Positions 29,301 to 51,281 are shown, numbered from the stretch's first letter. The stretch: DNA of 64,000 nucleotides from Candidatus Enterousia sp. (GCA_045635585.1 JAZTWA010000020.1:2426-66425), one strand, 5' to 3'. Numbers and translations: made by a program. The notes: generated by a model not told the origin, from the letters alone.

Positions 29301-30388
29301 CCAGTGTTGGAAGTAAAACCGCTGTTACAAACACAATTGATGCCTTGCAATGTAGAGTTTTTCGGACAGGTATAACAATCGTATTTCTTTTCTCCACTAT
29401 GATAAACATATGATTTGCCGGCTGGACATGCAGAGCACACCATGCCTTTATCCGCAGATGTAGCGCCGTATTCAACAGTATGTTCTTCTATTTTCGGTTT
29501 ATCAGATGGACATATTTCAGGGTCACCGCCCGCGCTGGCGATATAATAACCAGATTCAACCACTGCCTTACATTGACTACTTGATGTCCAGCCTGTGCCA
29601 GTTGCATCCCGATAATACGACGGACATGTCATTCGCTGGCCACCAGAACAGTAATAATAACCAGAACACTGGGTTTGTCCCGTACAGCCCGTACCAGATG
29701 TTCCGCAACCAGTCGCATAATATCCAGATGTTACAGGCGTACACGATGTCGCAGTACTGCCGTTCGTGCCCTGATACTGATAATTGGTACATGACACACA
29801 TTTTTGTGATGCACCAGTTCCCGACAGATATTTACCCTTGCCCGCCTTCAATGTTGTTGTAACAGCGGAAGTAGAGCCATACCATGATGCGTTTTTTACT
29901 GATACATATTGTTCATAACCATTAACATTTGGATTATTTGGATTCCATTGAGCGCTCTCAATCATAGTTGCATAAGGGAGGATAGGTTGCGTTAAAGTAC
30001 CGCTATAACAGCCGGCGGCACTGGCCGACAGGGTTTGGGTACATTGGGTTATGTTCGTCATACCGGTTTGGGTACCCATGGTCCAACCCGATGTTACGGT
30101 TGGACATTTCAGAGATTCACTGGTCGCTTTCATTCTCTTATTTGGACAGATATATCCCGCAGGACATGCCGTACGCGCGGAATTCGGGTTGGTTGACGCA
30201 TTATATCCGGGACAGATATATCCCACCTCGCACATCTTACAAGTAGTGCCCGATAGGTAATAACCCGCGTTACACTGCGTGTACACCTTGGTCGCACTGG
30301 TCGAGCAGGTATAACCCGCCGCAAATGCGTTATTTAATGTGAATAATGAAACCAATAAAATCGCGAAAATACGCAAAAATTTGAACAT
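20375..30388 (-). CDS. Giant (3337-aa) secreted Cys-rich mosaic protein with four EIEVY/EIQAF beta-sandwich modules
   Basis: I prefer the start at ATG 30388 (MFKFLRIFAILLVSLFTLNNAFA signal peptide, GGGAAAG SD) over the upstream Met at 30451. CxxC/GYYC modules run throughout. Listeria-Bacteroides repeats lie at aa ~400-800. Cys-poor modules lie at nt ~27242-27739, 25952-26425, 24527-25054 and 23267-23689. The Cys-free C-terminal ~180 aa map to 20375-20920. Confidence 0.85.
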   Translation of the reverse strand: MFKFLRIFAILLVSLFTLNNAFAAGYTCSTSATKVYTQCNAGYYLSGTTCKMCEVGYICPGYNASTNPNSARTACPAGYICPNKRMKATSESLKCPTVTSGWTMGTQTGMTNITQCTQTLSASAAGCYSGTLTQPILPYATMIESAQWNPNNPNVNGYEQYVSVKNASWYGSTSAVTTTLKAGKGKYLSGTGASQKCVSCTNYQYQGTNGSTATSCTPVTSGYYATGCGTSGTGCTGQTQCSGYYYCSGGQRMTCPSYYRDATGTGWTSSSQCKAVVESGYYIASAGGDPEICPSDKPKIEEHTVEYGATSADKGMVCSACPAGKSYVYHSGEKKYDCYTCPKNSTLQGINCVCNSGFTSNTGGEGGVQYVKPVENGGSCTGYTVNITLNSNGGTLADADFRMRVIYGEKLQVSWDAGGSWEDWSNVGGAGIDTYGSAIATKSGSRFAGFELNVVTGTAPLIIDANGFTTSNFSLTQSMGDYSLKAKWEVCKTTISYDLNGGTGTTPSSQTLTYGTALTLNSGSGLSRAGYTLSGWNTQANGKGTSYSKSQSISSWNGTCGNGTPTSVKLYAQWTPNTIKVTLNNQGATTAGTKEYYYQYNTKGTCYYYTTSALTTCIGGNSGDTITKPTKTGYTFGGYYTGQNGSGTQYVKADGVTTNNLYTVSTSNITLYAKWNPIQATITLDKNDGTGGTTTLYRKYNTNVSISSTSSAAGNLITASAKPYNFSLPSRNLHEFMGYYTAETGGTQVITAVGRLTSDTALLTLYPTSTTFTLYAHWKYVGVQCPTGYYAPDGATSDMDCQIDCDPGYGVFIPGDTCIPLTAVPNMPYYLDAHTVKLGQISNYTVCPTISDYDTQIYSFDGNNMGLHAGLNTCYLDMSGVEHYTDNIIENASIYAIGIEFYEWAEISEIEVYVGDTKLDPDTMYSISGFAEYYWDLFDGDVTTSLSTDDFNYFIDLDLPSGLEYTRIVLRPSQYMAISHTQAIMSIYVNDSLNSSIVASYVPFNAIENGTNGEYNYSDMAYDSAETDYWGTREFASVGFSFPLVAYELMFCQPGTYLPEYRYYAGGPHPTCNPASAGHYAAGEGNSQETPCPAGKYQDATGQTACKNTNSGYYVTGCNSDNEACTSQTKCTGATYCSGGVQENCPTGYVDDLSERKTAASQCKILVPGGKYLRTKYSTNTAPCVAGSYKAEHLVGYGQVETQESCIVCGINQYSDSGAAACETCPSGYVNSGNTSLYHAYAYSCKTTCSAGQRVTTPGATCSSPAGNWFYGESQEVSYGNVSAVNYCMDGYTASGTTAADHDAATDCKTTVPAGQAVNKNTITARYVRFASDGYLYGSGSESDMDPSIYLNEIQAFTSNNATGTNLLDGLLAFGIPDINGEEAYEVGYGATDGYFDVSDTYISFEQGQQGSILFDMGANQEIGSFVFSVDYGYRETYKNVQIFVATADEPNNWIPVMQPTDIETSDSYIDQIIINTVVVSDIPRSCAANTYRAGNTALALTSTLTCSSCPTAYPNSDVGTSDEKYCYVSKTKTGAQLNPDIPDRCSNATYNACTPGSCTYRDYNGATDETCTASSCTKTIASVTATAGNYVSGTSSCDVCPAPYSNSAAGNTGGVSACYLNTTPGKYIADKEDKDETECPTGEYCPSEKVNYGSANGGFSCDKETEGNYPFSELGSDSIRDCYVNVHAGGAVLTPMAAPVNLDTIGNNLVASAWTDEHSVYYQSVSPMNFCSTINNVAGDKTMTNGLIGNFAPTPNMPHDSSQHACIAPITPSGGIYQSRPVRYPIPGRIEVFADTSSFIEIAEIRFYFLELADALDAGSFEISTTQLPAEMVDRFMTILDADGHVVPTMSLLDGDVIDAVWLESGDRIRIDIDSGGLYGAIRNNTDIKDPALSHIEIIPVTEKDSREARIRVMVEDAAETARSLIRTGEQTGEAGDNMPVLGATFRFPLYVTAPKACGAGTYKESDRQYFANTLETCDSCPAPVDGWKYDTATGLGSWAECKMVTTTSTSGTPLSSCSAGALSATALDSTHWKDPTVSTALKAKSNNYVNGTRCSACSGLAGGFYPNSAADNTGGASACYTNTISGAYIATANASSTTSCASGTFKGDHTVNYGSTSSCSVCGDNQYSVTGATSCTACPSEYGNSGDTATAHAGESSCKTTCSAGQRVVSAGEQCTSPAGNWFTSAAQDVNYGSISAVDYCMTGYTSNGTTASAHDAARDCTTTISGQYIEQNTIPASKIKIVGIPSGTTLNFMLNEIQAFESHDGTGTNILAGKNCSVGANCAGATDGNFSMPAGQKPTASADGEFVFELGGSYEIGSIMFNTLTPIFDSLGIYVLGGMYGDWIPVFYEENYTKVGVSTPTMVVLNGESIDCDSGTYQGTTTVVLGDTSTCSSCPAAGDGWYYDGPDGLTDVTQCTAMTDVSYGGTPLGNCSAGKLTKTAKDSTSWNDPTVTTALTAKANNYVNGQTCDACPSGYPNSVVGNTGGVTACFSNTKQRPWTGSQLDGAIPTNCSAVTDWNACSVAACDYTAYANSAGTGDGTVKSGCETNAESCTKTVKAVSAQAGFYDAGTTCTACPSGYPNSVVGNTGGASACYTNTISGAYIAKPNDATSTQCAAGTFKGNHSVHYGDTSTCDTCTAGNYCVAGSSAETSCSTLGSFYTKSLAGAKTDTACYGTTTSKKYIQTVGDQTESDCAANGYCTGGIDVHYGSVGGRTACSTLGGGLYKNSPAKSDEAEDCYTDEISGAYLGKSTDTSTTECAGGTYLGKHTLNYPQTSTCSTCVAGNYCPAGSTVQTACSKLGGGLYSHSASGATQDTDCYAKVVAGHYIQTKADEVQTTCSGTYYCPGGTLYWDNVGGNEKCPDAESHKRVTYPEKYHNPTLVFVENKSDLTGLTKITECAVTYEFTNKYGQFLVDGTTYNSSNGKYDIGGDLFYDTLNPGYYFTERLSATWCDDIVNNPKRAMLYSDAAACPKDHYCSGLDAMPLCSSGTYNATLGQTSCVNPYPNSDGGTSATSVNACYLSTTAGKYVETAGAGLTDCVAGGYCAGGTKIYADKTGGITVCASNTYSDAGASACTACDTEDGYGNSGNEYSQHAGIKSCVVSCPAGSYVETAGGKCINVGAGFWGTGGDVAQTETSKRHACTTGLTTIGYGYGANEADDCGRKLHAGGSTIFLRSGKRTAPAFHANVGGLTLYGNMSETNRKAFMTDPERISAWINASNAWVESSDSYSVVYPVEVGKKYTLTFDTTSSSVVGTIFRWGFTDNPSPASQQLQGVVRTSPQSTPSATIEAVAPYLVVQIGAGAAESTLANHLFIEEETLRVKYNNKEYSVVDDWM

Positions 30389-30500
30389 TCTTTCCCACTT
30401 TCGTTGTATATATACAGTTGTAGTGTAGAAAACTTTCCGTATATCGCGCAAGCAAAAAGATGTATATACAAGGCACTTTTTTTATTTGACAGGTTTTGGC
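30389..30500 (-). promoter_or_regulatory. Conserved promoter/5'UTR block of the giant-protein family (copy 3, more diverged)
   Basis: Plus-strand tatata at 30463-30468 and tttgac at 30485-30490 (16-nt spacing). It shares gtgtagaaaa and tgtatatacaa.gca.ttttttatttgac.ggtttt with copies 1 and 2. Confidence 0.45.
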
Positions 30501-30524
30501 GCAGAATTGTGGGATTTTTTTCTT

Positions 30525-30763
30525 TTGTCATTGCGATGGGAGTTTTAACGACCGACGCAATCCAGATAGTGTGTATGCTGATTACTGGATTGCCACGCTT
30601 CGCTCGCAATGACAAAGGTGTTACTGGATTGCTTCGCTGCGCTCGCAATGACAAGGAGTGTAAAGTGTTTTTCCTTTGTCATTGCGATGGGAGTGTAACG
30701 ACCGACGCAATCCAGATGGTGTGGATGATTACTGGATTGCTTCGCTGCGCTCGCAATGACAAG
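30525..30763. repeat. Cluster of palindromic intergenic repeat units (same family as 1712-1874)
   Basis: Two copies of ttgtcattgcgatgggag.gtaacgaccgacgcaatccagat, each followed by ~20 nt and then one or two inverse units actggattgc..cgct.cgctcgcaatgacaa. Confidence 0.85.
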
Positions 30764-30821
30764 GGGAGATAATTTTTATTATGGATTTATTTGTGTCGCA
30801 TATGGTATGCTGGGGCTTGAT

Positions 30822-33423: not shown

Positions 33424-33654
33424 GTGACACACCAAATGCTGTGGAATGCGATTGAACAATTGGCAAAAGAAAACAGTATGACATGTTCAGGCATGGCAAA
33501 AAAATGCGGCTTGGACGCAACAACATTTAATAAAAGCAAACAATTTTCCGCAAATGGCACACCGCGTTGGCCATCATGTGGAACATTGGCCAAAGTATTA
33601 ACCACCCTGCACGTTTCGCCAATAGAATTTGCAAAAATGATTTGTGAACAGTAA
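33424..33654 (+). CDS. Stand-alone HTH protein resembling the N-terminal DNA-binding domain of CI/LexA-type (S24) repressors
   Basis: GTG start at 33424, 7 nt after AAGGAGA. The sequence THQMLWNAIEQLAKENSMTCSGMAKKCGLDATTFNKSKQFSANGTPRWPSCGTLAKVL matches the alphaproteobacterial repressor N-domain pattern (...TTFNKSKR...RWPS...). No peptidase domain follows. Confidence 0.6.
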   Translation: MTHQMLWNAIEQLAKENSMTCSGMAKKCGLDATTFNKSKQFSANGTPRWPSCGTLAKVLTTLHVSPIEFAKMICEQ

Positions 33655-33688
33655 TTTAATTCACTATGCACATACTTAATTTCGTGGC

Positions 33689-33773
33689 GAAAAAGTGGCG
33701 GAAGTCCGCCTAAAAAAACAAAGCCCCGACAGATATTGTCGGGGTTTTGATTATTCCTGGCTGAGTAGAATTC
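33689..33773. repeat. Direct repeat, distal copy (terminator-like hairpin plus decayed tRNA-Ser 3'-end-like segment)
   Basis: gaaaaagtggcggaagtccgcctaaaaaaacaaagccccgacagatattgtcggggttttgattattcctggctgagtagaattc aligns with 41823-41909 at ~80% identity, with a 26-nt identical core caaagccccgacagatattgtcgggg. tggctgagtagaa resembles the tRNA 3' end tggcggagtcgaa. Confidence 0.75.
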
Positions 33774-33829
33774 TGTTGCACAATTTCCCATACCCAAATG
33801 CGTAAACACAGGGTATTTACAGGGAATTT

Positions 33830-35113
33830 TTATTTCGTATGTTGTGGTTCGGCAAATCGACGCATTGCATCGTATGCCAAGCCAAGGCCCACACTGGCCA
33901 TTTTGTTTGCTGATGATAATTCTGCATTTGGGAAATATGACTGCATAACACGACTAACATATGGAATTTCGGTCGAACCACCCGTTAAAATGACTAATTC
34001 TATATCTGTGTTTTTTATACCTGCCTGGGCAATGCACTCTTGAACAGATTTTTCAATTTTGGCCATATCGGACTTGATAGAATCTTCAAAAACGGAACGA
34101 TTAGTTTTGACCATCGGAGCATCTGCTAAAAAGTCTAAAACTATTTCATAGTCCTGCTGTGAAGATAGTGCCATTTTAGCATTTTCAACATAATCTAAGT
34201 TTTTATGCCCCAGACGATTTTCTATTATTTCATATAGACGTTTTGTTTTTTCTGGTTCCAGCCCCCAAACAGTATAACCACGCACCCTATTCAGTGTTTT
34301 ATAGTTATACACTTCGTTCACAGATGACCATGTGGAAAGACTGATATACGGACTGGTTGGGATTGTGATGTTTTTATCATATGATTTATATTCTGTCCCC
34401 AATCCAAAACATGGCATAAATGATTTCATTGATAGCGCCTTGTCAAAATCATTCCCACCAATACGAACACCTGTATTAGCCAATACATCTTCGGTTCTAT
34501 CCAACTTGAACTTGCGTTCTGGTGATAATCTGATAACGGTAAAGTCAGATGTTCCGCCACCAATATCAACAACAAAAGCAAGCTTTTCCGATGTTAAATT
34601 CTGTTCGTGTGCAAAGGCCGCAGCAATAGGTTCATACTGAAATGCGACATGTTTAAATCCAGCTGCAAGTGCGATTTTTTCCAATTCCGCCTGGGCTTGG
34701 GCATCACCAGCAGGATCGTTATCACGAAAATGTACTGGTCGCCCCATAACAACATATTCAACCTTGGTGCCTGCTGCCTTGTCAATTTTCTGTTTCAGGT
34801 GTTTTACAAAATATTCAATAATTGTATCAAAGCGGGTCATTTTTCCATTTATGACCGTCCCGCCACGCATTGTTTGTGACCCCAAAATACGCTTCATGCT
34901 GCGCATAAAACGACCAGAACCATCGCCATTTGTATATTTATCCTGTGCGTCACGACCATAATGCACACGATTGGTTTTATCTGCAAAAAATAATGCGGTT
35001 GGAATTGTGTCTTTGCCGCCTTCTACATCCACCATACGTGGTGCATTGCCATCAGAGATGGCAGCGGCAGAATTTGTAGTTCCAAAATCAATCCCTGCAA
35101 CATATTTAGCCAT
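33830..35113 (-). CDS. Hsp70-family ATPase, YegD-like (no substrate-binding lid)
   Basis: 427 aa. GIDFGTTNSAAA phosphate-1 motif, DIGGGTSDFTVI phosphate-2 motif, LTGGSTEIP adenosine motif. The length and layout are those of the short YegD-type Hsp70 homologues. Confidence 0.85.
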   Translation of the reverse strand: MAKYVAGIDFGTTNSAAAISDGNAPRMVDVEGGKDTIPTALFFADKTNRVHYGRDAQDKYTNGDGSGRFMRSMKRILGSQTMRGGTVINGKMTRFDTIIEYFVKHLKQKIDKAAGTKVEYVVMGRPVHFRDNDPAGDAQAQAELEKIALAAGFKHVAFQYEPIAAAFAHEQNLTSEKLAFVVDIGGGTSDFTVIRLSPERKFKLDRTEDVLANTGVRIGGNDFDKALSMKSFMPCFGLGTEYKSYDKNITIPTSPYISLSTWSSVNEVYNYKTLNRVRGYTVWGLEPEKTKRLYEIIENRLGHKNLDYVENAKMALSSQQDYEIVLDFLADAPMVKTNRSVFEDSIKSDMAKIEKSVQECIAQAGIKNTDIELVILTGGSTEIPYVSRVMQSYFPNAELSSANKMASVGLGLAYDAMRRFAEPQHTK

Positions 35114-35180
35114 AAAAGCACCTCTTTTTACTTGAAAAGTTTATAACAAACTGCTTAAATGTCAAGCATAAGGTTATACT

Positions 35181-35792
35181 ATGTTTATTGTAATCGAGGG
35201 TGGTGATGCCGCTGGCAAAACCACATTGATAAACGGACTCAAACAAACAATCCAACAAAATGGACTGGGGAGTTTGTCGCCACAAAACACCCATTTTCTC
35301 AAATCACCAACCGCCCCATTTGCCCCCGTATGGAAGGATTTAATCAAAACATCCAGCCCACTAACTCGATTTTATTTATTCCGTTCTATTGCACAAAATG
35401 ATGTTGATGTTGCAAAAAAACTTTTAGAAAACGGACAGCACGTTATTCTTGAACGGTATTTTTTATCCAGCGAAGCGTTTAATTGGGCATTAGATGAGAA
35501 AAACAATGTTACAGATCCAAATATACGTTCCGAAAACCACGTTAATTATTCTGGATTGCTAAAGCCCGACTTAGGCTTCTTTTTGTATACATCTGACAAA
35601 AACCGCGAACAAAGATTACAACAAAAAGAAAAACGATCAGATTGGGAAAATCGCGATTTTCAGACCATATTCAACCAAAAGCTTAGAGAACTGGCCCAGC
35701 GCGATAATTGGATTTTTATAGATACAGATAAAAAGAATATCACAGAGGTATTACAATTTGTATCAGCCAGGATTATACAATATCAACGCTGA
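35181..35792 (+). CDS. Divergent thymidylate-kinase-like (d)NMP kinase
   Basis: P-loop FIVIEGGDAAGKTT; ERYFLSSEAF at the position of the Tmk DR(Y/H) motif; KPDLGFFLYTSDKNREQRL at the lid region. The usual TREPGGT nucleotide-binding stretch is replaced by LKSPTAPF. Confidence 0.65.
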   Translation: MFIVIEGGDAAGKTTLINGLKQTIQQNGLGSLSPQNTHFLKSPTAPFAPVWKDLIKTSSPLTRFYLFRSIAQNDVDVAKKLLENGQHVILERYFLSSEAFNWALDEKNNVTDPNIRSENHVNYSGLLKPDLGFFLYTSDKNREQRLQQKEKRSDWENRDFQTIFNQKLRELAQRDNWIFIDTDKKNITEVLQFVSARIIQYQR

Positions 35793-36739
35793 CGCCAATT
35801 ATTGAAAAACAATGGATCATCACGATTAATTGTATATTCAACCCCGCATTTTTTTAATACATCTAATCTATTACTATCAATACGTTTGACGGGCGTTAAC
35901 AGCACATTCGATTCAGGGCATAGATCAAACCTGGTATGCCCCGAAAATAGTTTTAATATCTTTTGCCTTGTGTCATTTGCCCATAAATATGTTCCATGAC
36001 AAATATTATCCAGTTGCAATTTTGATAAATTAACAAAATATTCGTCATAAAGTTCGTCTTGCGTAGTTCCTGTAATTATTTCACCCGCATGCAATCCGAC
36101 ACTTGCTTTTAATCCACTGGTCTTACTTGCTTCTATTATTTCAGATAAAACACACAAATTAGATTCTAGTATGTTTTTATCAGGGTATTCATATCCAGAA
36201 ATATCAAAACCAACGCAACGCGATTTAAACGGCTCTTGTTGCAATAATTTGCAAATATCAGACAACAATTTATACGAATAATTTTTTAATTCTCCAGATT
36301 GCGTACGAATAAAGGTTATACAAATTTTACCTTTTGCGGCTTTATGTAACTTTTCGACATCTTCAAAGCCTTGAATCATACCTATATAGCGCTTATATGT
36401 ATTGTCTATGGTTATGTCAGGACCTGCAATAATTGTGTATTCTGATATTCCAAAGCGCGCCAAATTAAGAGCTAACTCACGTGTTGCCAGACGGTATGTT
36501 TGATATATTTCATTTGTATTTTTTGGTTTTGTAACAGATTGCACCAGTGAATACATTTCGTTAAACTTTTGTTGATTTAATTTATAATCGTTGCCAAACA
36601 TACTAACAAAAGTATCAGACAAACCATCAGGCGACAGAATAGAATACTTATCTAAAAACGCCTGATGTGACTCTTGTAATTTTCTGTACACGTATGTAGG
36701 CGATAAAGAACCTGTAAAATGTAAATGTTTGTCTATCAT
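35783..36739 (-). CDS. Adenosine/AMP-deaminase-fold metallo-hydrolase (short, 318 aa)
   Basis: All ADA-family signatures occur in order: DKHLHFTGSL (HxH), VGFDISGYE, GLHAGE, ICHGTYL, DLCPESNV, TINRDDPLFF. Its start overlaps the upstream gene's stop by 4 nt. Confidence 0.75.
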   Translation of the reverse strand: MIDKHLHFTGSLSPTYVYRKLQESHQAFLDKYSILSPDGLSDTFVSMFGNDYKLNQQKFNEMYSLVQSVTKPKNTNEIYQTYRLATRELALNLARFGISEYTIIAGPDITIDNTYKRYIGMIQGFEDVEKLHKAAKGKICITFIRTQSGELKNYSYKLLSDICKLLQQEPFKSRCVGFDISGYEYPDKNILESNLCVLSEIIEASKTSGLKASVGLHAGEIITGTTQDELYDEYFVNLSKLQLDNICHGTYLWANDTRQKILKLFSGHTRFDLCPESNVLLTPVKRIDSNRLDVLKKCGVEYTINRDDPLFFNNWRQR

Positions 36740-37926
36740 TTAACTTTACCAATCCAAGTACACAGATAGTCCATATGAACCAACCTTTGTGTGCTTACCA
36801 TATTTTGTTCTTGCGGGAATTCATGCTGATAGTCCTTGGGACAATATGGATCCTTGCACAAAAATGACTTATTACCTGTTTGTACCGCATTAAACAGATA
36901 AGATCTAGCCGCACATCCACCACCACACACATCTACTTTTTCACACCCCGCGCATCCACGTAACATTTCTGGATTTGCATTTCGTTGCCTAAACACCTTA
37001 AATTCATCTGATTTTATAATGTCTGATAATTCATGTGTTAACAGGTCTTGTGAAGATTTGTAATCATGCATATAAACACACGGCGAAACAAAAATTTTTC
37101 CATCTGGCGTAATAGAGTGAATCCTGAAACTAGATATTCCACATGGACAACGTTTTGAATTTTTTTGTCCTGTCACTGTTCTCAACACACTTTCACCATT
37201 TTCTACATTATCACAGTGTTGCATCAAATACTGAAACCCATAATAAAACTGTTTAATAGACATAACGTATTTCATTTGTACTGAACTTAAGGGTTTCATT
37301 GTATTAATACGAACAAAAGCATCGTATTTCTTGCATAATTCTATTAGTGCTGACAAGTGTCTTTCTGTAAAATTCCAATTCATGCCAGCCATAATGACAC
37401 TGTGCGGTTTTCCAGTTTGCTTGCAAATATCTAAACATTGAATGGCATCATCATATAAGTTATCGCCACGATTGGCATTATGTTCTTCCTTGAACGGCGA
37501 ATCCAAACTTATATCAAAATCATTTATTTTTTCATAAATATCAGGGCGATATTTATACAAATATAATAATGTATCCCCACTAGTGGTAATTCCCGCCGAT
37601 AACCCATACGAATCCAAACGTTCTATTATATACGGCAACAGAGAATCTTTAACATTTGGACCATTTGTAAAAATTGGCTCGTTACCGCCAAGATTTATCG
37701 TTTCAACATTGTTCTTGGCCAATTGTTCTACTATTCTATCTACAATTTCAGGCGTCATATTAGCACCAAGACGGCGGGCAGACATAGAATAACAATGCTT
37801 GCACTTATGCGGACAATAATTTCCCAGTGTCCAACCAACATTTTTTATTACCGATGGGGTCTCTGGGGCGTTGCCAAATTCGGTAACAGGACCACGTAGT
37901 TTGTAATGTTCAGTTGAGTTATACAT
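36736..37926 (-). CDS. Radical SAM enzyme with a SPASM-type C-terminal auxiliary-cluster domain
   Basis: CPHKCKHC (CX3CX2C) near the N-terminus; GGNEP; C-terminal Cys-rich CPCG...C...CAGCEKVDVCGGGCAARS, typical of SPASM/twitch domains. Confidence 0.85.
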   Translation of the reverse strand: MYNSTEHYKLRGPVTEFGNAPETPSVIKNVGWTLGNYCPHKCKHCYSMSARRLGANMTPEIVDRIVEQLAKNNVETINLGGNEPIFTNGPNVKDSLLPYIIERLDSYGLSAGITTSGDTLLYLYKYRPDIYEKINDFDISLDSPFKEEHNANRGDNLYDDAIQCLDICKQTGKPHSVIMAGMNWNFTERHLSALIELCKKYDAFVRINTMKPLSSVQMKYVMSIKQFYYGFQYLMQHCDNVENGESVLRTVTGQKNSKRCPCGISSFRIHSITPDGKIFVSPCVYMHDYKSSQDLLTHELSDIIKSDEFKVFRQRNANPEMLRGCAGCEKVDVCGGGCAARSYLFNAVQTGNKSFLCKDPYCPKDYQHEFPQEQNMVSTQRLVHMDYLCTWIGKVK

Positions 37927-37927
37927 A

Positions 37928-39511
37928 TCATTTCACCTTTATAAATGGGTTTACTGCCGCCCTGTATTGTAAGCGCGCTTTGCGATATAATTCGTCTGTT
38001 TTTGACTCTTGCTTATAAAAGAATCCTCTGTTGTTTTCTATTGATTTTTCTACAAAACTTGCAACCGTTGTGGCACTTGCATTACTGTCAACCAAATCTA
38101 ATATTTTGCACATAATATCTAAATCCAGTTGTCGTATTTTTAAGTATTCAGCATAAAAATCTGCCATTTCTGATTTTGTAAGTGCCTTTGGCGATGTAAG
38201 CGGGTCTATTGCCTTGTCATAAAAAGCCATATGCACTGTGTGCCAACGCTTCAAGGCATCATACGCTATTTTGGCCCTATCGTCTAATATTCTATAATTG
38301 TAATTCCCCAACACTGGATTTTCACTGGTCACAATATTATTTCTGGAAACTTTCTGTTGAAACGCCGTACCAGTCGCTGCAAACATTTCTGTAAAAATAC
38401 CCTTGCTTATAATCCAATCATATTTCCGCATATATTCATAGTTCTCTTGCAACTCAACCAATGTGGTATAAGGATCAAATAATATCTGGCCAGCTTGAAC
38501 ATAAAAGTCATGTTTCTTAAACAAATCTAACGCCATGCAATTTTGTTTAACCGATGCGCCCTTGGCCATTCGCTTCAACGCAGTTGTAGAAAAATTTTCT
38601 ATTCCGCATGAGAATGAGAAAAAACCAGCACGTTTTAATTCTGCAAGCACTTCATCTGTTACCCTGTCGGCACGTATTGAGCCACGTAAATCAAAGGCGA
38701 GACCATATTCTTGCATTTTGGTTGCAAAATCGCGACACCATTGCGCATCCCTGTCGCCGTCAACAAAGGAATCGTCAATAACTTTGATATGTTGCACACC
38801 TAAACTTTTCAAATACCGCATTTCAGATATAATATTATCTATGCTACGCCCACGCCATTTTGGAGACTTTGAGAGTCTAAAAAAAGAATTTATACTACAA
38901 AAAGAGCAATAACCCGTACAACCACGTGCCGTCAACAGGTGTATGGGCGTACGTTTATCTATTGCGATTTTTACCGTATCACGAACTGGGATTGGCAGGT
39001 CGTCCAGCGGGCTTAATAACTTTACAATTGGATTATGCGTATTTTTGCTATTTTCTTTATAACTTAGATTCTTAATACCTGAAACAGGGGTTTTATCTTG
39101 TAACGCTTGTGCTAAATCACAAATCGCCTGCTCGCCCTCGCCACGAATTACGAAATCAAATCCGCTGTCTAAAAATAAGTCTGGACTAAAAGTGGGGCCA
39201 AAACCACCTGCAGCAAAGGTAATGTTTTTTTGTTGCTTTACAGCATCCAATGTCTTTAACGCCTGATCTATATTGGATTGATACGCAGAAACACCAATGA
39301 ACAACGGTTCTTTGTCTTGTAAAATCTTATTTGCCAATTCGTCTGGCGTCCAGCCATTTAGCCAAGCATCTAAAATTTTTACCTCAAATCCATTTTTTTG
39401 TAAAACTGCAGACAAATACCCCAGCCCCAGATTTTCTTCTGCAGTTCTATGACTGATGGGTGCTGGGGTCGCTAGGATAATAAAATTATTTTTGTTCTGC
39501 GTACTTTGCAA
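37928..39511 (-). CDS. B12-binding-domain radical SAM enzyme (class B-like)
   Basis: N-terminal Rossmann-like cobalamin-binding-type domain (IILATPAP...LGLGYLSAVLQKNGFEVKILD...FIGVSAY...IRGEGE) followed by ARGCTGYCSFCS (CX3CX2C). Confidence 0.85.
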   Translation of the reverse strand: MQSTQNKNNFIILATPAPISHRTAEENLGLGYLSAVLQKNGFEVKILDAWLNGWTPDELANKILQDKEPLFIGVSAYQSNIDQALKTLDAVKQQKNITFAAGGFGPTFSPDLFLDSGFDFVIRGEGEQAICDLAQALQDKTPVSGIKNLSYKENSKNTHNPIVKLLSPLDDLPIPVRDTVKIAIDKRTPIHLLTARGCTGYCSFCSINSFFRLSKSPKWRGRSIDNIISEMRYLKSLGVQHIKVIDDSFVDGDRDAQWCRDFATKMQEYGLAFDLRGSIRADRVTDEVLAELKRAGFFSFSCGIENFSTTALKRMAKGASVKQNCMALDLFKKHDFYVQAGQILFDPYTTLVELQENYEYMRKYDWIISKGIFTEMFAATGTAFQQKVSRNNIVTSENPVLGNYNYRILDDRAKIAYDALKRWHTVHMAFYDKAIDPLTSPKALTKSEMADFYAEYLKIRQLDLDIMCKILDLVDSNASATTVASFVEKSIENNRGFFYKQESKTDELYRKARLQYRAAVNPFIKVK

Positions 39512-39893
39512 TTTCAGCCTTTAAACTGGGGTCTGCGGACATATCTGCAAATTCTGCAGGATATATCCATTTATATTCTGTATGCTCACTTGACAGTTTT
39601 ACATCTCCCCCCAGATATTTAGCTAACAAAGTAATACCAACAGTTTGTCTTTCTTTTGCAGGCGTCATAAATGACCACAACGACCATGGTCTGAATTCAA
39701 TTTCTACATCAAGACCGGTTTCTTCAAATACTTCGCGCTTGATACCATCTGTTGTTTTTTCACCATACTCAATTTTCCCGCCTGGGACATCCCATAATTC
39801 GGCATAAACATCTTCTTCGCAACTGCGCTTCAGAACTAAAATCTTATCGTCTTTATGTATAATTGCCTTCAACGCAACCTTAAATTCCGCCAT
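39486..39893 (-). CDS. Nudix hydrolase
   Basis: Canonical Nudix box GGKIEYGEKTTDGIKREVFEETGL (GX5EX7REUXEEXGU). First gene of the four-gene operon; overlaps the next gene by 26 nt. Confidence 0.9.
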   Translation of the reverse strand: MAEFKVALKAIIHKDDKILVLKRSCEEDVYAELWDVPGGKIEYGEKTTDGIKREVFEETGLDVEIEFRPWSLWSFMTPAKERQTVGITLLAKYLGGDVKLSSEHTEYKWIYPAEFADMSADPSLKAEIAKYAEQK

Positions 39894-40248
39894 TTTGCTC
39901 TCCTTGTATGGGTAGTATCTTACTGTATAAATTCACAAAATCAAGTTTTGATTAAATTTTTCTTTTACTCATAACAAAACTATATGGGAAAAATTTAAAA
40001 TTTGTTTTCAAGTAAAATATTTTCAATTTTGGCGATTTAAAAAAAGATCACATTTGAAAAAAATTCCTTTCCCGTTATTAATTAATTATAAGGAGTCCAA
40101 GCCTATCATACCTGCAAAGGCGGGAATTGGTTCGCGTTATGATTGAACGAGCAACTTATTCACAAGAACAACTGATATTCTGTATCAACATCAACGGTTA
40201 TATAATTCATTTTTATCTACATATCATATCAATCACAATAGCCGTCCA

Positions 40249-40596
40249 ATGGAATATACGGTCAACGGTGATAATGTGATGATTGTGCGACCGGTTGTGC
40301 TGCGCCGATATGCCAACACCAGATTTAGCGGTGGACGTAACGGCACGCTGAGCATGACAGAAAACAACCACCTGATATTGAAGGCCTTTGCCACCGCGTG
40401 GAAATATAGAGAATTGTATGAACGGGATGGGGACATACACCGCATATTCCAAGAAGAACACACATCGCCACGTCAGTTTTACCGGCATCTGGATATCGCA
40501 TATATGAATCCGGACAAGGTTAATGAAATCTTGTCCGGTAAAGCACATATCAATGTTAATGATTTGTTCCAGATTGCAAGAGAGAATCAGTTGTAA
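40249..40596 (+). pseudogene. Remnant: C-terminal fragment of a serine recombinase (resolvase/invertase with alphaproteobacterial-type C-terminal extension)
   Basis: HLILKAFATAWKYRELYERDGDIHRIFQEEHTSPRQFYRHLDIAYMNPDKVNEILSGKAHINVNDLF parallels the ...LxKALARAxRWxxxLExG....SYvxRxLRLxxLAPDIVEAILDGxQP..L.L..L tail of such recombinases. No catalytic resolvase domain is present. A 47-codon ORF at 40139 (MIERATYSQEQL...) could be a scrap of the N-terminus. Confidence 0.45.
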
Positions 40597-41661
40597 TTAT
40601 TTTGTAGGATTTCCTGTTTCCATCTCTGCACCGACCATAGGACCATTAAAACTATACCTCTTGTGTTTATTCAAAAATATTTCCCTTAAAACTTTATTTT
40701 CACGACGCAATACATTATCTGAGTCAGTAGAACCTTCTGGGGCCTGTGAAAAATATTCTGATAATATTTGCCATTTTAAATCAGCTTTGGCATTTTCTAT
40801 ATCATCTTTGTTTTCGAAATCAATTTCACGCCCCAGTATAATCGCAACACTTTGTTCATTCATATGTGTGATTAACGCTTCTATTGCTGATATTTTTCGT
40901 TTATCCCCATTAATTTTTTCATATACATTGAAAAGTGCATTAAATATTTTATACAAAACAAACAATGTCCCCACAAACAGTAAGGCGTTTGGAATTTTCA
41001 CAACAACAATCGAAAGCGCCGCATACACCCAATTCCAACCATTTGGTACAAGACTTGCATTGATAAGATTCAGTTGCTCTGAAAAAAGACTTAAAGTTTC
41101 AGAGATATTGCAAAGAGAAAAACTGCCAAGAATTACCGCCAACACAATTATGCCCAACATACTCCACCCATAGAAGCGCATATTTTTAACTGACTCTTCT
41201 TTGAAATCTTTAACACTGTTTATAATTTTTATATTTTTTTCGATTTTCGCCTTGTGTTTTTGGTATTTTTCATCCATTTGCTTCGTTTTGTTAGCTGTTT
41301 CTTCTTCTCGCTTTTGAGCGGTATCTTCCAACTCCACAATTCTATTTTCTAATTGTATCTTCTCATGATTTAAAGACCCAGCAGGATATTCTCCCGTATC
41401 ATCTTGGAGACCTATTTTTGTTTCTAACTGATTATGCTCTGTTTTCAACTGATTAATATCATTAACCAGCGCATCCCCCTCTGATTTATACCTGGTCAAA
41501 TTCTGTGTAGCTACAGAAATATCTGACTGTAAGGAAGCCAATGTATCTTGCGCTTGCGATATTTCATTTTGTAAGTTCTGTTTTTCTGTTCTCAATTGTT
41601 GATTTTCTTCAATAAGTTGCTGCCGATTTAGTGCTAAGGCAGAATTTGTAACGGGAGCCAT
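40597..41661 (-). CDS. Coiled-coil membrane protein, unknown function
   Basis: 354 aa. The N-terminal ~150 aa are heptad-like and Q/E/N/L-rich (QQLRTEKQNLQNEISQAQDTLASLQSD...). Two hydrophobic segments follow (WSMLGIIVLAVILGSFSL; WVYAALSIVVVKIPNALLFVGTLFVLY), then a soluble C-terminal ~100 aa. Confidence 0.6.
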   Translation of the reverse strand: MAPVTNSALALNRQQLIEENQQLRTEKQNLQNEISQAQDTLASLQSDISVATQNLTRYKSEGDALVNDINQLKTEHNQLETKIGLQDDTGEYPAGSLNHEKIQLENRIVELEDTAQKREEETANKTKQMDEKYQKHKAKIEKNIKIINSVKDFKEESVKNMRFYGWSMLGIIVLAVILGSFSLCNISETLSLFSEQLNLINASLVPNGWNWVYAALSIVVVKIPNALLFVGTLFVLYKIFNALFNVYEKINGDKRKISAIEALITHMNEQSVAIILGREIDFENKDDIENAKADLKWQILSEYFSQAPEGSTDSDNVLRRENKVLREIFLNKHKRYSFNGPMVGAEMETGNPTK

Positions 41662-41822
41662 TATTAATCCTTTTATTTTATCGCATTTTATGTAGGATTT
41701 TTTTTACTGTTTTCAAGGGGTAACACATAAAAACTGGCATCGGTGTTTTGGGCAATGTATGTAAGTAGCGGAATTATTCGAACATTTGATAATTTCGTTG
41801 TACATACCGGTAACCTTGTGAT

Positions 41823-41909
41823 GAAAAAGTGGCTGAAATCCGGCTAAAAACAAAGCCCCGACAGATATTGTCGGGGCGTTTGATTTTTGTGGCGGAGTCG
41901 AAGGGATTC
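41823..41909. repeat. Direct repeat, tRNA-proximal copy (overlaps the 3' 20 nt of tRNA-Ser)
   Basis: See 33689-33773. It contains the hairpin CCCCGACAgatatTGTCGGGG, which acts as the terminator of tRNA-Ser on the minus strand. Confidence 0.75.
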
Positions 41910-41980
41910 GAACCCTTGATACCCTTGCGGGTATACCACATTTCCAATGTGGCGCACTAGACCAACTATGCGACGACTCC
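41890..41980 (-). tRNA. tRNA-Ser (GGA)
   Basis: Minus strand GGAGTCGTCGCATAGTTGGTCTAGTGCGCCACATTGGAAATGTGGTATACCCGCAAGGGTATCAAGGGTTCGAATCCCTTCGACTCCGCCA. Anticodon loop TTGGAAA, long variable arm (class II), CCA encoded. Confidence 0.9.
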
Positions 41981-41993
41981 TGAATAAAAATGA

Positions 41994-42365
41994 TTATTCT
42001 TCGTCCAAAGCGTCAACATCAGAAGATTCTTCAACAACTTCTTCGTCTGATGACAAAACAGAATCCAATTCCGCATCAATTTCACGCAACAACGGATCAG
42101 ACGCAGCAATTTCCAATGATTCTTCACCAGGTTCTGAAACAGGCGCTTCTTTGTAAGATTGGACAAATTCATGACGGACCGCAGATACATCCAATTTACC
42201 ACTGGCGATTTCGCGCAGCGCAACAACAGTCAATTTATCATCTTTGGTATCAACCACAGGTTCTGCCCCACCGTTCAAATCACGAACACGCTGAGATGCC
42301 AACATCCCCAGTTCATAACGACTTTCTACGTATGGTAAAGTATCAGAATTTGTTGTACGTGCCAT
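41994..42365 (-). CDS. rpoZ: DNA-directed RNA polymerase subunit omega
   Basis: MARTTNSDTLPYVESRYELGMLASQRVRDLNGGAEP is the conserved RpoZ core, followed by an acidic tail. Start moved to ATG 42365, because the upstream part of the listed ORF is low-complexity. Confidence 0.85.
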   Translation of the reverse strand: MARTTNSDTLPYVESRYELGMLASQRVRDLNGGAEPVVDTKDDKLTVVALREIASGKLDVSAVRHEFVQSYKEAPVSEPGEESLEIAASDPLLREIDAELDSVLSSDEEVVEESSDVDALDEE

Positions 42366-42415
42366 TTTAATTCCTTTGTTGAAATCTTTTTTAACCAGGT
42401 TATAATGAACCATGG

Positions 42416-43672
42416 ATGGCAAAAATGCAAGAAGAAAATAATAAAAATAATATAAAAACACTATCTTTTGGTTGTCGATTAAATGCGTTGGAATCGGAAA
42501 AGATTCAGAAAATGCTGGCCCCACATATCAAAACCGCAATTGTCGTTAATACGTGCGCCGTAACAGCAGAAGCAGAAAGACAATCAGGTCAGGCATTACG
42601 ACGTATTGCACGCGAAAACCCAAACAGCCCTATTTTTGTAACAGGATGCGCTGCAACACGAAATCCAGAATTGTTTACACATATTCCAAACACTGCCGTT
42701 ATTGCCAATCGCGAAAAATTAAATCTGGAATCATATGTCGCCGCAATCCAATCAGGAAAATGTGACATTATCAATCCGACAATTGAAAAATTTAGTCAGG
42801 TTGACACAAAGCTGTCCAAACAATTCATACAAATACAAAATGGATGCAATCATAATTGTGCGTACTGTATAACACGCGCATTGCGTGGACCCGCAGTATC
42901 TTTTGAATATACAGACATATTGAACGATGTACGAACTGCGGTCCAACATGGCTTTTATGAAATTGTTTTAACTGGTGTCGATATCGCGTCATATGTAAAA
43001 AACGATACAGATGGCGTATGCACATTATCAAAACTGTGTAAAAAACTGTTAAACGATGTGCCAGAAATTCAAAGGCTACGTTTATCTTCGGTAGACCCGG
43101 CCGTACCAGACGTTCACAACATCATAGATTTAATACACAATAATCCTAGAATGATGCCGCACATGCATTTTTCAATGCAATCATGTTCTGATACGATATT
43201 AAAAAGCATGGGACGCAGACATAATGCACAAATGGTACGCGACTTGGTTACACACGCAAAAGGAAAAATTACATTCAGCTGGGATATAATTTGTGGATTT
43301 CCAGGTGAAACAAACGAATTATTTGCTGAGACATTAGCAATGATTCATGAAACAAAACCAATTAAGATTCATGCATTTCCTTTTTCACCACGTCCCGACA
43401 CCCCCGCAGCCACTATGCCAATGCAAATAAATCGCACAATTTCCAAAGAACGCGTAAAAATTATAAATACCACAGCAAATCAAAACCGCTTGGATTTTAT
43501 GCAATCCCAGATTGGCAAGACCGTTCAAGTCTTGGTCGAAGAAAATAATATGGCACGTTGCCCACACGATATTGCCGTAAAGATTACCGGACCCAATGTA
43601 CCTGCACGCACAATATGCGACGTTACAATAACTGACGTCGTTGACGACTGTTTCATCGGTTGCATGGCTTGA
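42416..43672 (+). CDS. mtaB: MiaB-family radical SAM methylthiotransferase, MtaB-like
   Basis: N-terminal UPF0004 domain (TLSFGCRLNALESE...VNTCAVT), radical SAM motif NGCNHNCAYC, ~418 aa. Confidence 0.8.
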   Translation: MAKMQEENNKNNIKTLSFGCRLNALESEKIQKMLAPHIKTAIVVNTCAVTAEAERQSGQALRRIARENPNSPIFVTGCAATRNPELFTHIPNTAVIANREKLNLESYVAAIQSGKCDIINPTIEKFSQVDTKLSKQFIQIQNGCNHNCAYCITRALRGPAVSFEYTDILNDVRTAVQHGFYEIVLTGVDIASYVKNDTDGVCTLSKLCKKLLNDVPEIQRLRLSSVDPAVPDVHNIIDLIHNNPRMMPHMHFSMQSCSDTILKSMGRRHNAQMVRDLVTHAKGKITFSWDIICGFPGETNELFAETLAMIHETKPIKIHAFPFSPRPDTPAATMPMQINRTISKERVKIINTTANQNRLDFMQSQIGKTVQVLVEENNMARCPHDIAVKITGPNVPARTICDVTITDVVDDCFIGCMA

Positions 43673-44087: not shown

Positions 44088-44134
44088 AAATTTTTATATT
44101 GGAAATTGATTTTATTACTGCTAGTATCCATTCT

Positions 44135-45310
44135 ATGAAAAAGAATTTATTCGCGTTATTTTTATCGCTTTTGTGTCTGGGGGCGCGTGCCGCCGACTTT
44201 AAAACCAAGGCAAAATCTGCATTCTTAATCGACTACGATTCTGGCACAGAAATTATTGCAAAAAATGCAGACACATTAATGCCACCATCTTCGATGATTA
44301 AATTAATGACGTTGGCGCTGTTGTTCGACGAAGTTAAGGCAGGCAATCTGACACTGGATTCACGAATTACGGTTGGCCCAAATGCCGATTACAACAGACC
44401 AGAATGGTATCCCGCCAGTAAAATATGTCTGGTCGCCGGTCAGACAATCACTGTGCGCGATTTAATTTTGGGACTGATTGTGTTATCAGGCGGCGATGCA
44501 TCTGTGGTTGTCGCGGAAAAATTGGCAGGAACCGAAGAAGCATTTACACAGATGATGCGCGACAAAGCACGCAGTATTGGAATGAACCAATCAACATTTG
44601 GTAATGCCAGTGGACTGCCCAATCCAAATAATTTGATGACCAGTCGTGAATTAGCAATCTTGGCACAACACCTGATTACAGACTATCCAGATTTATATCC
44701 GATGTTTGCCACAAAACGATTTGAATTTAACGAACATCAAACAAACTGGTGCCGCGAATGGGGACGTACACATACACTGAATTACAACAAATTATTATTC
44801 AATATGCGTGGCGCTGATGGATTAAAAACAGGTCATACAAATGACGGCGGATATGGCATGGTCGCCAGTGCAAAAATCGGCGACAGACGATTAATCGGTA
44901 TATTAAATGGTTTTAACGGCAAAGGACATGATGCATTGGCCAACGAGATGAAAAAACTATTGGAATATGGTTTTAAAAACACTATAACCAAGACTTTTGT
45001 TCGTGCGGGCGATGTTGTTGCAAAAATCCCTGTTTGGTATGGACGTGTACCAACCGTTGATGCAACCGTTTCTGAAACATTTGCAATAACATTACCAACA
45101 GAAAATAGTATGAATGGGGTACGCGTTTTGGCACGATATGACGAACCAATTAATGCACCAATTATGGCCGGCGACGTTATCGGCGAAATAATCGCAGAAC
45201 AAAATGGCACAGTAATAAAACGCGCACCACTGGTTGCCAAAGAACACGTCAGAAAAACACAATTCTTTGGACGCGCGATTAAAAATATTCGCGTAATGTT
45301 GGGGTTGTAA
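44135..45310 (+). CDS. D-alanyl-D-alanine carboxypeptidase (PBP5/6 family)
   Basis: Signal peptide MKKNLFALFLSLLCLGARA; SxxK motif (PPSSMIKLMT); SGGD at the SxN position; KTGHT (KTG). Start moved to ATG 44135. Confidence 0.9.
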   Translation: MKKNLFALFLSLLCLGARAADFKTKAKSAFLIDYDSGTEIIAKNADTLMPPSSMIKLMTLALLFDEVKAGNLTLDSRITVGPNADYNRPEWYPASKICLVAGQTITVRDLILGLIVLSGGDASVVVAEKLAGTEEAFTQMMRDKARSIGMNQSTFGNASGLPNPNNLMTSRELAILAQHLITDYPDLYPMFATKRFEFNEHQTNWCREWGRTHTLNYNKLLFNMRGADGLKTGHTNDGGYGMVASAKIGDRRLIGILNGFNGKGHDALANEMKKLLEYGFKNTITKTFVRAGDVVAKIPVWYGRVPTVDATVSETFAITLPTENSMNGVRVLARYDEPINAPIMAGDVIGEIIAEQNGTVIKRAPLVAKEHVRKTQFFGRAIKNIRVMLGL

Positions 45311-45311
45311 A

Positions 45312-46217
45312 ATGGCACCACGAAAAAAAACATCTTTGGATTACGAATTTCCACATCCAATGGACAACGATTATATGGTTGGACATTCAGAAACACTGCG
45401 CAACTTTGTGAACGCATGGGGAAATCGTGAAACGCATCCAATACACCCTGTTTGGATGTTGACCGGACCAATGGGAATCGGCAAGGCGACACTGGCATAC
45501 AAAATTGCAAAAATGGTATATGGAAATGTTGGCGACTTTTTCATTATTGACCAAGAACGCAATATCGATAAAGACGGAAAAACAAAATCAGACAGCAAGA
45601 CAATTTCTGTGTACACAGTGCGCGCAATGATGAATAAAATGCAACTGTCTTCTATGTCGGGTGATTGGCGCGTAGTTTTAATTGATTCCGTTGATCAATT
45701 AAATACCGCCGCATCAAATGCGATATTAAAACTATTGGAAGAACCACCCGCAAAAACATTATTCCTGTTGGTTGTACACCAATTGGCAAACGTATTACCA
45801 ACCGTTCGTTCGCGTTCACGCGTTGAAAAAATGCGACCGTTGACGATATCACAACTGCGCGAACTGTGTGCCAAATTTATCCCAGAAGAAGACGTCAGCA
45901 CAGAAACACTGAAGTTGGCAAATGGCAGTTTTGGTCGTATTGCAAATCTGAAAAAATCGGGCGGTGATGCGATTTATGCCGAACTGATTGAAATTCTGAA
46001 CAACAAACACGCAACCAGTGCGGACGTTATGGGATTGGCAAAAAAAATTGCACCTGCACCAGAATTGTATGGAATCTTGTTAGACGCAATTGCTTATTTC
46101 GGTTTGGCAGAACTATATCCAGTTGCGACACATTCAATTGCCGATATAAAAAATATATATTTAGAACCAGAAATTGGTATCTTTAAGATAATTATGGAAA
46201 TAAAAAAATGTTTATAG
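45312..46217 (+). CDS. holB: DNA polymerase III subunit delta'
   Basis: GHSETLRNFVNAW...HPVWMLTGPMGIGKATLAYKIA (AAA+ P-loop-like), VVLIDSVDQLN, SRS motif (TVRSRSR). Confidence 0.8.
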   Translation: MAPRKKTSLDYEFPHPMDNDYMVGHSETLRNFVNAWGNRETHPIHPVWMLTGPMGIGKATLAYKIAKMVYGNVGDFFIIDQERNIDKDGKTKSDSKTISVYTVRAMMNKMQLSSMSGDWRVVLIDSVDQLNTAASNAILKLLEEPPAKTLFLLVVHQLANVLPTVRSRSRVEKMRPLTISQLRELCAKFIPEEDVSTETLKLANGSFGRIANLKKSGGDAIYAELIEILNNKHATSADVMGLAKKIAPAPELYGILLDAIAYFGLAELYPVATHSIADIKNIYLEPEIGIFKIIMEIKKCL

Positions 46218-50860: not shown

Positions 50861-50928
50861 ATTATTTCCACAATTGTTGACGTTTTGATTTTATCGCATA
50901 TCGTATTCAAATGTCAATAGCGTTATTG

Positions 50929-51253: not shown

Positions 51254-51281
51254 TACGGACGGATAAATCATGATAAAAAAT

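Follow-up and report, generated by a model that had tools for sequence, protein, structure and literature searches.

The 64,000-nucleotide (nt) stretch of Candidatus Enterousia sp. DNA analyzed here (the window) contains an 8.2-kb segment lying directly at the 3′ end of an intact tRNA-Ser(GGA) gene. Organisms of this type have genomes of <1 Mb (PMC12306168). We consider it very probable that the segment (approximately 33771–41889) is a decayed, immobilized, phage-derived element of the large serine recombinase (LSR) kind, situated at a tRNA-Ser accretion hot spot and carrying a mobile cassette. The tRNA gene, which is the integration target, was located by ARAGORN at 41890–41980 on the minus strand and is followed by rpoZ (41994–42524, minus strand); element DNA begins at 41889. 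At the other side, a helix-turn-helix (HTH) gene of the Cro/C1 type (33424–33654, plus strand; Pfam HTH_26) belongs to the left flank and lies outside the island. Its stop codon adjoins the left of two direct repeats, and its orthologues come after orf108 in three comparison loci (L009, L028, and L042).

The six-gene cargo cassette occupies 33808–39950. According to Pfam, it consists of genes encoding an Hsp70/YegD-like protein (33830–35113, minus strand), a Tmk-like protein (35181–35792, plus strand), an adenosine-deaminase-like (ADA-like) protein (35783–36739, minus strand), a radical S-adenosylmethionine (rSAM) enzyme with a SPASM domain (36736–37926, minus strand), a B12-binding rSAM enzyme (37928–39511, minus strand), and a Nudix protein (39486–39893, minus strand). 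This is the gene content given by an earlier sequence-only reading of the window, with the qualification that the Tmk-like gene is not the housekeeping tmk. An exact-protein look-up of the window Hsp70-like protein found no record. The left-end sequence between a displaced tRNA stub (described below) and the cassette (33771–33807) resembles the left end of L056, TGGCGGA|ctaaaattctattgcacaattt, and, further in, also those of L080, L081, and L083. To the right of the cassette lie the upstream region and ribosome-binding site of a lost ParB_N gene (39951–40101, plus strand), a recombinase pseudogene (40102–40596, plus strand), and a gene for a 354-amino-acid (aa) coiled-coil/membrane protein (40597–41661, minus strand). 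The last of these fills a variable slot between recombinase and tRNA: a protein with 70% aa identity occupies the same position in L045, L083 has a remnant, and six other gene families fill the slot in other loci.

The two repeats, 33689–33773 and 41823–41909, are identical at 74 of 90 alignment columns (82%, over about 86 nt), close to the figure of about 80% proposed earlier. The exact core named then was also found, but it is longer than the 26 nt reported: the longest run common to both copies is 31 nt, AAAAACAAAGCCCCGACAGATATTGTCGGGG, starting at 33714 and 41846. Within this run is a 21-nt hairpin, CCCCGACAGATATTGTCGGGG, which occurs only twice in the window, once in each repeat. In a terminator scan, both copies scored as bidirectional intrinsic terminators. 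They serve tRNA-Ser (right copy) and the Hsp70-like gene (left copy) on the minus strand, and on the plus strand the left copy comes after the HTH gene stop codon. A weaker similarity, 75% over about 120 nt, continues leftward as far as about 33657 and 41790.

Both repeats belong to copies of a larger block. Alignments, the terminator scan, and an identity matrix place the left copy at 33657–33757 (hairpin at 33724–33744), where about 60 nt are missing from the start of the full block. The right copy, which is probably element-borne, spans 41742–41889 (hairpin at 41856–41876) and abuts the tRNA 3′ end; the right repeat itself runs on into the tRNA gene, as the earlier reading had it. The left copy is followed by what appears to be a decayed, displaced tRNA-Ser 3′ stub, TGGCTGAGTAGAA (33758–33770, minus strand), with the conserved core TGGCGGA at 33758–33764. 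The stub matches the tRNA 3′ end, TGGCGGAGTCGAA, at 11 of 13 bases, and its register is exactly that of TGGCGGAG in 14 homologous blocks from other genomes. A degenerate tRNA-like stretch at 41770–41792 had also been proposed. Its score in the window copy is a significant one, reached by 2 of 2,000 shuffles, but the stretch is absent from the block-family consensus (1,478 of 2,000) and was rejected as a robust feature because the family gives it no support.

For comparison, GTDB species representatives were scanned with the miaB-like protein encoded at 42416–43672, which returned 79 loci, about 70 of them from gut metagenome-assembled genomes (MAGs) of Candidatus Enterousia or other Alphaproteobacteria (56–75% aa identity). 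Site polymorphism was compared across related species. More than 70 loci keep the order tRNA-Ser(GGA)-rpoZ-miaB-like-dac-holB, and many also have the genes that lie to the left of the segment in the window (HI0933-like, alpha/beta hydrolase, orf108, and HTH). The interval between these left-flank genes and the tRNA ranges from 0.36 kb in the near-empty loci L044 and L006 to more than 8 kb, and its content is largely unrelated from locus to locus. Such a hypervariable interval beside a conserved right flank is characteristic of integration hot spots. The claim of the sequence-only reading that DNA had integrated at the tRNA-Ser 3′ end, for which it had proposed a comparison of synteny with relatives, is borne out by this variability, by the near-empty sites, and by stub junctions in three other genomes.

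The recombinase pseudogene was defined by translation and by tblastn against an intact 530-aa homologue (L008:7205–8797). It is the 3′ remnant of an LSR gene, corresponds to residues 364–529 with one frameshift and one in-frame stop, and lies 1.3 kb from the tRNA. Identity is 90% over residues 397–529 and 68%, in a different frame, over residues 364–403. The open reading frame (ORF) at 40249–40596, identified earlier as a serine-recombinase C-terminal remnant, is indeed the tail of this gene, and the decay postulated for it is evident: relatives encode intact proteins of 529–530 aa (e.g., L008:7205–8797 and L045:6376–7965), and the window copy lacks residues 1–363 and with them both the Resolvase and the Recombinase domain. 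In the intact L008 protein, the single member scanned with Pfam, these domains score E = 3e-39 (PF00239) and E = 1.5e-12 (PF07508), respectively. The closest solved structure is the catalytic domain of TP901-1 integrase (E = 1e-24), and the best NCBIfam matches, CcrB and XisF, fall far under their cut-offs (121 vs 900 bits for CcrB).

The deletion that produced the remnant can be placed precisely. Window positions 40004–40100 correspond to L008:5563–5660 at 95% identity, just upstream of the ParB_N gene, which L083 retains directly after the equivalent sequence, and positions 40102–40589 correspond to L008:8296–8787. At the junction 40101/40102, 2.6 kb comprising ParB_N, DUF2924, and the catalytic two-thirds of the LSR gene are gone. 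The identical junction is found in the window, L001, and L081.

An LSR of this gene family or its remnant is present in 19 of the 54 loci with enough left flank, 243–2,191 bp from the tRNA 3′ end and always directed toward the tRNA. The gene is usually preceded by a DUF2924 gene and in L008 also by a ParB_N gene. Since all 19 loci had been reached through a gene beside tRNA-Ser(GGA), a further search was started from the recombinase. Looking outward, all four metagenome loci with enough flank have a minus-strand tRNA-Ser gene 0.6–1.4 kb past the recombinase stop: tRNA-Ser(GGA) with the block in L092 (where the contig end cuts the tRNA) and L095, and tRNA-Ser(CGA) in L093 and L094, with a recombinase identity of 50–52%. 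In the IMG/VR contig L091 and in L053 and L060, DUF2924-LSR pairs are linked to terminase, DUF5681, and ParB_N-methylase genes, which points to an integration module of the temperate-phage type. The background of the sequence-only reading implied a tyrosine-type integrase; the recombinase found is an LSR. Tyrosine integrases were considered as tRNA-Ser neighbours in other loci and rejected, the neighbours being tyrS, serS, ABC-F, HNH-like, and unknown proteins. No tyrosine integrase was found among the gene families annotated at this site in the 54 loci, where most one-off ORFs were unscanned. In a literature search of incomplete coverage, no serine integrase family specialized for tRNA-Ser came to light.

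The right repeat is part of a block of about 148 nt that is conserved at about 85–90% directly 3′ of tRNA-Ser in at least 10 recombinase-bearing loci, where nearby coding DNA is just about 72–75% identical. Block and recombinase co-occur (13/6 vs 4/31; Fisher p = 3e-5), and the block tracks the recombinase subfamily nearest to the window remnant. In loci without a recombinase it was not detected save as displaced or partial copies (L040, L047, L057, L044, and L033), the L044 copy having lost its hairpin and L033 retaining 30 nt; the displaced copies are separated from the tRNA by small inserts. This distribution argues that the block is not the native terminator, and we infer that it is element-borne DNA that provides the tRNA with a new 3′ flank. 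Every exact copy of the hairpin, in about 80 related loci as well as in L092 and L095, has TGGCGG at a fixed offset, as either tRNA or stub. Of all pairs among 15 family members, the one formed by the two window copies has the lowest identity (71%), and each of the two is 81–86% identical to copies in other species, which indicates two independent arrivals and no recent local duplication. By these alignments, the left repeat is an older, truncated member of the family that appears to have been displaced together with its tRNA 3′ stub. No Rfam family matched the block or the small units described below, at the gathering threshold for L044, L047, and L068 or at an E-value threshold for L005 and L073.

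Serial events of this kind can be seen elsewhere. In many loci, one to three units consisting of a terminator and a tRNA stub lie between the tRNA and older DNA, and the inserted unit determines whether the stub measures 19, 14, 13, or 7 nt. L005 and L006 form an occupied/empty pair with flanks that are 92% identical; the 393-nt insert of L005 holds two mini-units and is bounded by a 53-nt direct repeat composed of a terminator and 19 nt of the tRNA. This pattern indicates that DNA entering the site carries its own terminator and tRNA end and pushes the earlier one outward. The window repeat would accordingly reach about 85–120 nt because the flank that was displaced was itself a block left by a previous arrival of the same element subfamily. 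For recombinase-bearing elements, no closely related occupied/empty pair with enough left flank was found, the nearest being L012/L071 and L053/L057. A crossover at the motif GCCCCGA(A/C), which occurs at the left junctions of L068, L073, and L025 and in the block hairpin, was considered, but the right ends lack the expected remainder.

The mini-units themselves are about 170–190 nt long, belong to three types (A, B, and C), and stand in tandem between tRNA-Ser(GGA) and older stubs (L005:9077–9470, L044:8905–9112, L013:9256–9463, L046:9069–9461, L035:7899–8298, and L015:3805–3996; none in the window). Each ends in a terminator and a replacement tRNA 3′ end. Between species, copies of unit A are 90–94% identical, with right-flank DNA mostly at about 75–80%. 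The opposite strand of units B and C shows T-arm or acceptor-like motifs; the units receive no ARAGORN or Rfam call. A sub-threshold Rfam match to sRNA-Xcc1 (L073:527–615, minus strand; 46.8 vs 53 bits, E = 3.5e-7) lies inside ORF F117, adjoining sequence upstream of that ORF that is common to L068, L073, and L025, and is probably spurious.

Evidence that the cassette moves horizontally comes from a discordance of identities. In L001, a single contig, the DNA matches the window at 96% over 38439–40589, from inside the B12-binding rSAM gene to the end of the recombinase remnant (B12-binding rSAM 98% aa, Nudix 99% aa), whereas its flanks are about 75% identical overall (rpoZ 62%, miaB-like 74%, dac 78%, and holB 83%); L001 also has a different gene between recombinase and tRNA. 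A second case is L073 and L080, from one assembly, with 93% for the Tmk-like protein vs 70% for the miaB-like protein. Further cassette contigs were found through homologues of the Tmk-like protein. The module is 81–94% identical at the nt level in L080, L081, and L083–L085, and homology to the window starts at 33808 and ends at 40100 (L083), 40423 (L081), or about 39950 (L084/L085). The same gene order was also called in L086–L090, with no Nudix gene called in L089 and L090. In L080, L081, and L083, the left boundary of the cassette is joined to a terminator, of a different type in each, followed by TGGCGGA|gta. At its other end, the L083 element, which retains ParB_N and a remnant of the 354-aa protein gene, reaches tRNA-Ser(TGA) instead of tRNA-Ser(GGA). 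The last 7 nt of the tRNA, TGGCGGA, are the core common to both tRNA-Ser genes and to the stubs at the cassette junctions. These comparisons support the earlier proposal that the cassette is horizontally acquired cargo, which appears to circulate among Enterousia species. In L049:8486–8980, just the Nudix gene and its upstream region stand beside tRNA-Ser (95% aa and 90% nt identity to the window), with a 994-aa ORF in place of the rSAM genes, another mosaic breakpoint inside the cassette.

From the anatomy of the segment, its homologies, the synteny variation, and the identity discordance, the following history can be proposed. Site-specific recombination, presumably catalyzed by an LSR, would have brought an element into the 3′ end of tRNA-Ser(GGA); the LSR would have been encoded at the tRNA-proximal end of the element, in a ParB_N-DUF2924-recombinase module. 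The element would have carried a substitute for the final nucleotides of the tRNA and a terminator-containing flank of about 148 nt, now the right repeat, and moved the earlier tRNA 3′ end and flank to a position about 8 kb away, now the left repeat. The crossover would fall within the last 7–19 nt of the tRNA. The displaced flank may in turn be a relic of a prior element of the same subfamily, so that the long att-like repeats would reflect accretion at the hot spot and not a long crossover core. The 2.6-kb deletion, probably a later event, would have joined the ParB_N ribosome-binding site to about codon 364 of the recombinase and immobilized the element. In keeping both att-type ends, a truncated recombinase, and a left repeat that is itself a relic, the segment has the features of a relic of the cis-mobilizable element (CIME) type.

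Several observations weigh against this history. Characterized serine recombinases exchange at a 2-bp core, usually integrate inside genes, and leave very short repeats (PMC5704250); stubs of 7–19 nt and a common terminator do not resemble this, and the accretion explanation is needed to account for them. What ties the LSR to integration at tRNA-Ser is association, as no excised circle or attP was observed and none of the cassette-bearing copies found among the comparators has an intact recombinase. Because the window, L001, and L081 share the LSR deletion, the latest spread cannot have used this recombinase copy. The resemblance of the left repeat to the tRNA 3′ end, claimed earlier, holds in its match and in its register across 14 blocks, but the 11/13 match alone is not significant (217 of 2,000 shuffles reach the score). 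The earlier reading had also proposed a check of composition; GC content is indeed lower in the segment (37.2% vs 40.9%), but the deviation is mild (2nd percentile of 8.1-kb windows), and the tetranucleotide distance is high without being extreme, which could be explained by donors from the same genus. Tmk-like homologues show a smooth identity gradient from 97% to 69%, so the history of the cassette within the clade may be largely vertical. Finally, all comparators are MAG or metagenome contigs, for which chimeric joins and mis-binning are possible.

Some of these points would also fit an ancestral variable region shaped by differential loss and homologous exchange, in which the cassette is an old resident and the recombinase remnant an incidental prophage scar. 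The smooth Tmk-like gradient and the shared recombinase deletion, which means that the latest transfer was not self-catalyzed, are what such a history would leave; module junctions at conserved sequences such as the recombinase 3′ end, and the occurrence of the cassette in many contexts, some of them with no stub or tRNA (L084/L085 and L088), favor it as well. However, it does not readily explain the tRNA 3′ stub that adjoins the left cassette end in four genomes, whose host terminators differ, nor the presence of the cassette at two different tRNA-Ser genes, and the contiguity of the ParB_N upstream region with the cassette in the window, L081, and L083 fits one element better. We regard this explanation as unlikely.

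The repeats could instead have arisen independently of any element. The sequence-only reading had raised a local duplication as a caveat, due to the repeat running past the tRNA into the terminator and exceeding the usual att core; one form would be a tandem duplication of the native tRNA-Ser terminator region that was later split by insertions. Serial integration accounts for this length: in L005 vs L006, a simple insertion gives the same terminator-including repeat. The divergence of the two window copies from each other relative to those of other species, and the failure to detect the block in recombinase-less loci save as displaced or partial copies, also speak against a duplication, which we consider very improbable. 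The least probable explanation is that a dispersed terminator repeat, resembling repetitive extragenic palindromic sequences or miniature inverted-repeat transposable elements, occurs twice by chance. Other dispersed repeat families are present in the window, but the hairpin occurs just twice in 64 kb, and its exact copies elsewhere all have the tRNA motif at the fixed offset. An LSR element at an accretion hot spot remains our preferred explanation for the segment.

A broader hypothesis, which we put forward tentatively and hold as possible but short of probable, is that a phage-derived LSR clade in gut alphaproteobacteria of the Rs-D84 group is specific to tRNA-Ser 3′ ends (GGA, TGA, and CGA), rebuilds the tRNA end and terminator, and mobilizes recombinase-less derivatives in trans. 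Such derivatives might be as small as the mini-elements of 170–400 nt (units A, B, and C) or as large as the cassette element of the window, at 8 kb. Mobilization in trans would explain how a recombinase-deleted element spread between species with genomes of <1 Mb.

Regarding the cargo, the Tmk-like protein scores 76.7 bits against the NCBIfam equivalog TIGR00041, whose cut-off is 83.25, and its gene is always inside the cassette. An assignment as the housekeeping tmk was rejected because of this score and because the gene is cassette-bound even at 49% identity in another taxon. The dacC-like gene and holB are directly adjacent, with no tmk between them, in the window (44099–46217) and in all Enterousia loci; tmk is often located between these genes in Alphaproteobacteria. 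No canonical tmk was seen in the window or the related loci examined. The five-gene core encoding the Tmk-like, ADA-like, rSAM-SPASM, B12-binding rSAM, and Nudix proteins (window 35181–39893) is kept at 49% Tmk-like identity in L098/L099:5001–9815, and it looks like an uncharacterized nucleotide-modification or defence pathway. In L098/L099, this core comes after a different operon, encoding a Nudix protein, an rSAM enzyme, an aminoglycoside phosphotransferase (APH)-type kinase, and a haloacid dehalogenase (HAD) hydrolase.

PADLOC models, searched as a library without cut-offs, gave partial-length matches to the candidate systems PDC-M51A (E = 1e-13) and PDC-M51B (E = 3e-16), which involve the B12-binding rSAM enzyme and the kinase; the Nudix protein matched the candidate PDC-S07 (E = 9e-19), and the SPASM enzyme weakly matched pVip. 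An antiviral, nucleotide-modifying role for the cassette is plausible from these similarities. Elsewhere, the cassette has neighbours resembling those of defence islands (L084/L085:6540–7803, L083:5174–8335, and L088:15339–20609), including a reverse transcriptase with an HTH gene (retron-like), a type II restriction-modification system with two C5 methylases, AbiEii, DUF4917, and a tyrosine integrase.

Other repeats and large genes were observed in the window. Dispersed repeats of 37–41 nt, ATTACTGGATTGCCGCGCTTCGCTCGCAATGACAAG, occur in 10 copies, partly in tandem with a 37–39-nt period (1677–1878, 30517–30768, and 50925–51258), and are accompanied by a conserved partner motif, TTTGTCATTGCGATGGGAGT...TAACGACCGACGCAATCCAGAT. 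The copies at 30.5–30.8 kb lie just past the 5′ end of a giant ORF of 3,358 aa (20375–30451, minus strand). This ORF and the region at about 7–20 kb contain many imperfect internal repeats rich in a ...GGACAT/ACATG... codon pattern. Unrelated giant proteins (family F16, 850–1,900 aa) fill the tRNA-Ser interval in L017, L019, L021, L028, and L035, and the F16 protein of L046 lies further left, past HI0933.

These results suggest that Candidatus Enterousia, with a genome of <1 Mb (PMC12306168), retains an active tRNA-Ser integration hot spot that exchanges accessory cassettes, probably antiviral ones. They also point to an LSR family with a tRNA target, a niche assigned to tyrosine integrases in a review (PMC5704250). 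If this is confirmed, the LSRs and their att sites, which lie in the short and universally conserved tRNA-Ser 3′ end, would be of interest for serine-integrase genome-engineering tools, and the miniature att-flanked units would offer a simple model for integrative relics mobilized in trans. For annotation, the ORF at 40249–40596 should be recorded as a pseudogene, and the rSAM, Tmk-like, ADA-like, Nudix, and Hsp70-like genes should be treated as one mobile accessory module and not as core metabolism.

In comparison with known systems, the segment is an island of the ordinary kind, tRNA-associated and with a decayed integrase, and the type of integrase is unusual for a tRNA target. The 3′ ends of tRNA genes are typical targets of tyrosine integrases (PMC5704250), and in a survey of mycobacterial prophages, 16 of the 23 attB sites used by tyrosine integrases overlap a tRNA or tmRNA gene. 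Islands and prophages of the P4 and other types share with the segment a tRNA 3′ target, a distal partial tRNA copy, accessory or defence cargo, and integrase decay, but they use tyrosine integrases, whereas the LSR is the sole recombinase family seen at this site. The outward displacement of older relics when a new element enters the target-adjacent att site is known from the ICESt1/ICESt3 family, from CIMEs, and from tandems of integrative mobilizable elements at tRNA-Lys (PMC5704250). Those systems combine tyrosine integrases with conjugation, whereas no conjugation or mobilization genes were seen here.

Among serine recombinases, the phage integrases TP901-1, A118, phiC31, Bxb1, SPbeta SprA, and that of Wolbachia phage WO have the same Resolvase and Recombinase architecture, and, as in temperate phages, relatives of the window LSR are linked to terminase genes. 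The similarity to these integrases is mainly in the catalytic domain, however, and the elements described here differ in their tRNA-Ser 3′-end target and, in the window, in having a non-functional fragment. The closest functional analogue is SCCmec of staphylococci, which integrates through CcrAB or CcrC at the 3′ end of rlmH (orfX). Both systems have an LSR-type integrase, insert at the 3′ end of an essential gene and leave that gene functional, carry accessory cargo, and form tandem elements and recombinase-less pseudo-elements, each with direct repeats. In contrast to SCCmec, the target here is a gene for a tRNA and not for a protein, the recombinase falls well short of the Ccr cut-offs, and it is a single enzyme of the phage type with DUF2924 and ParB_N partners.

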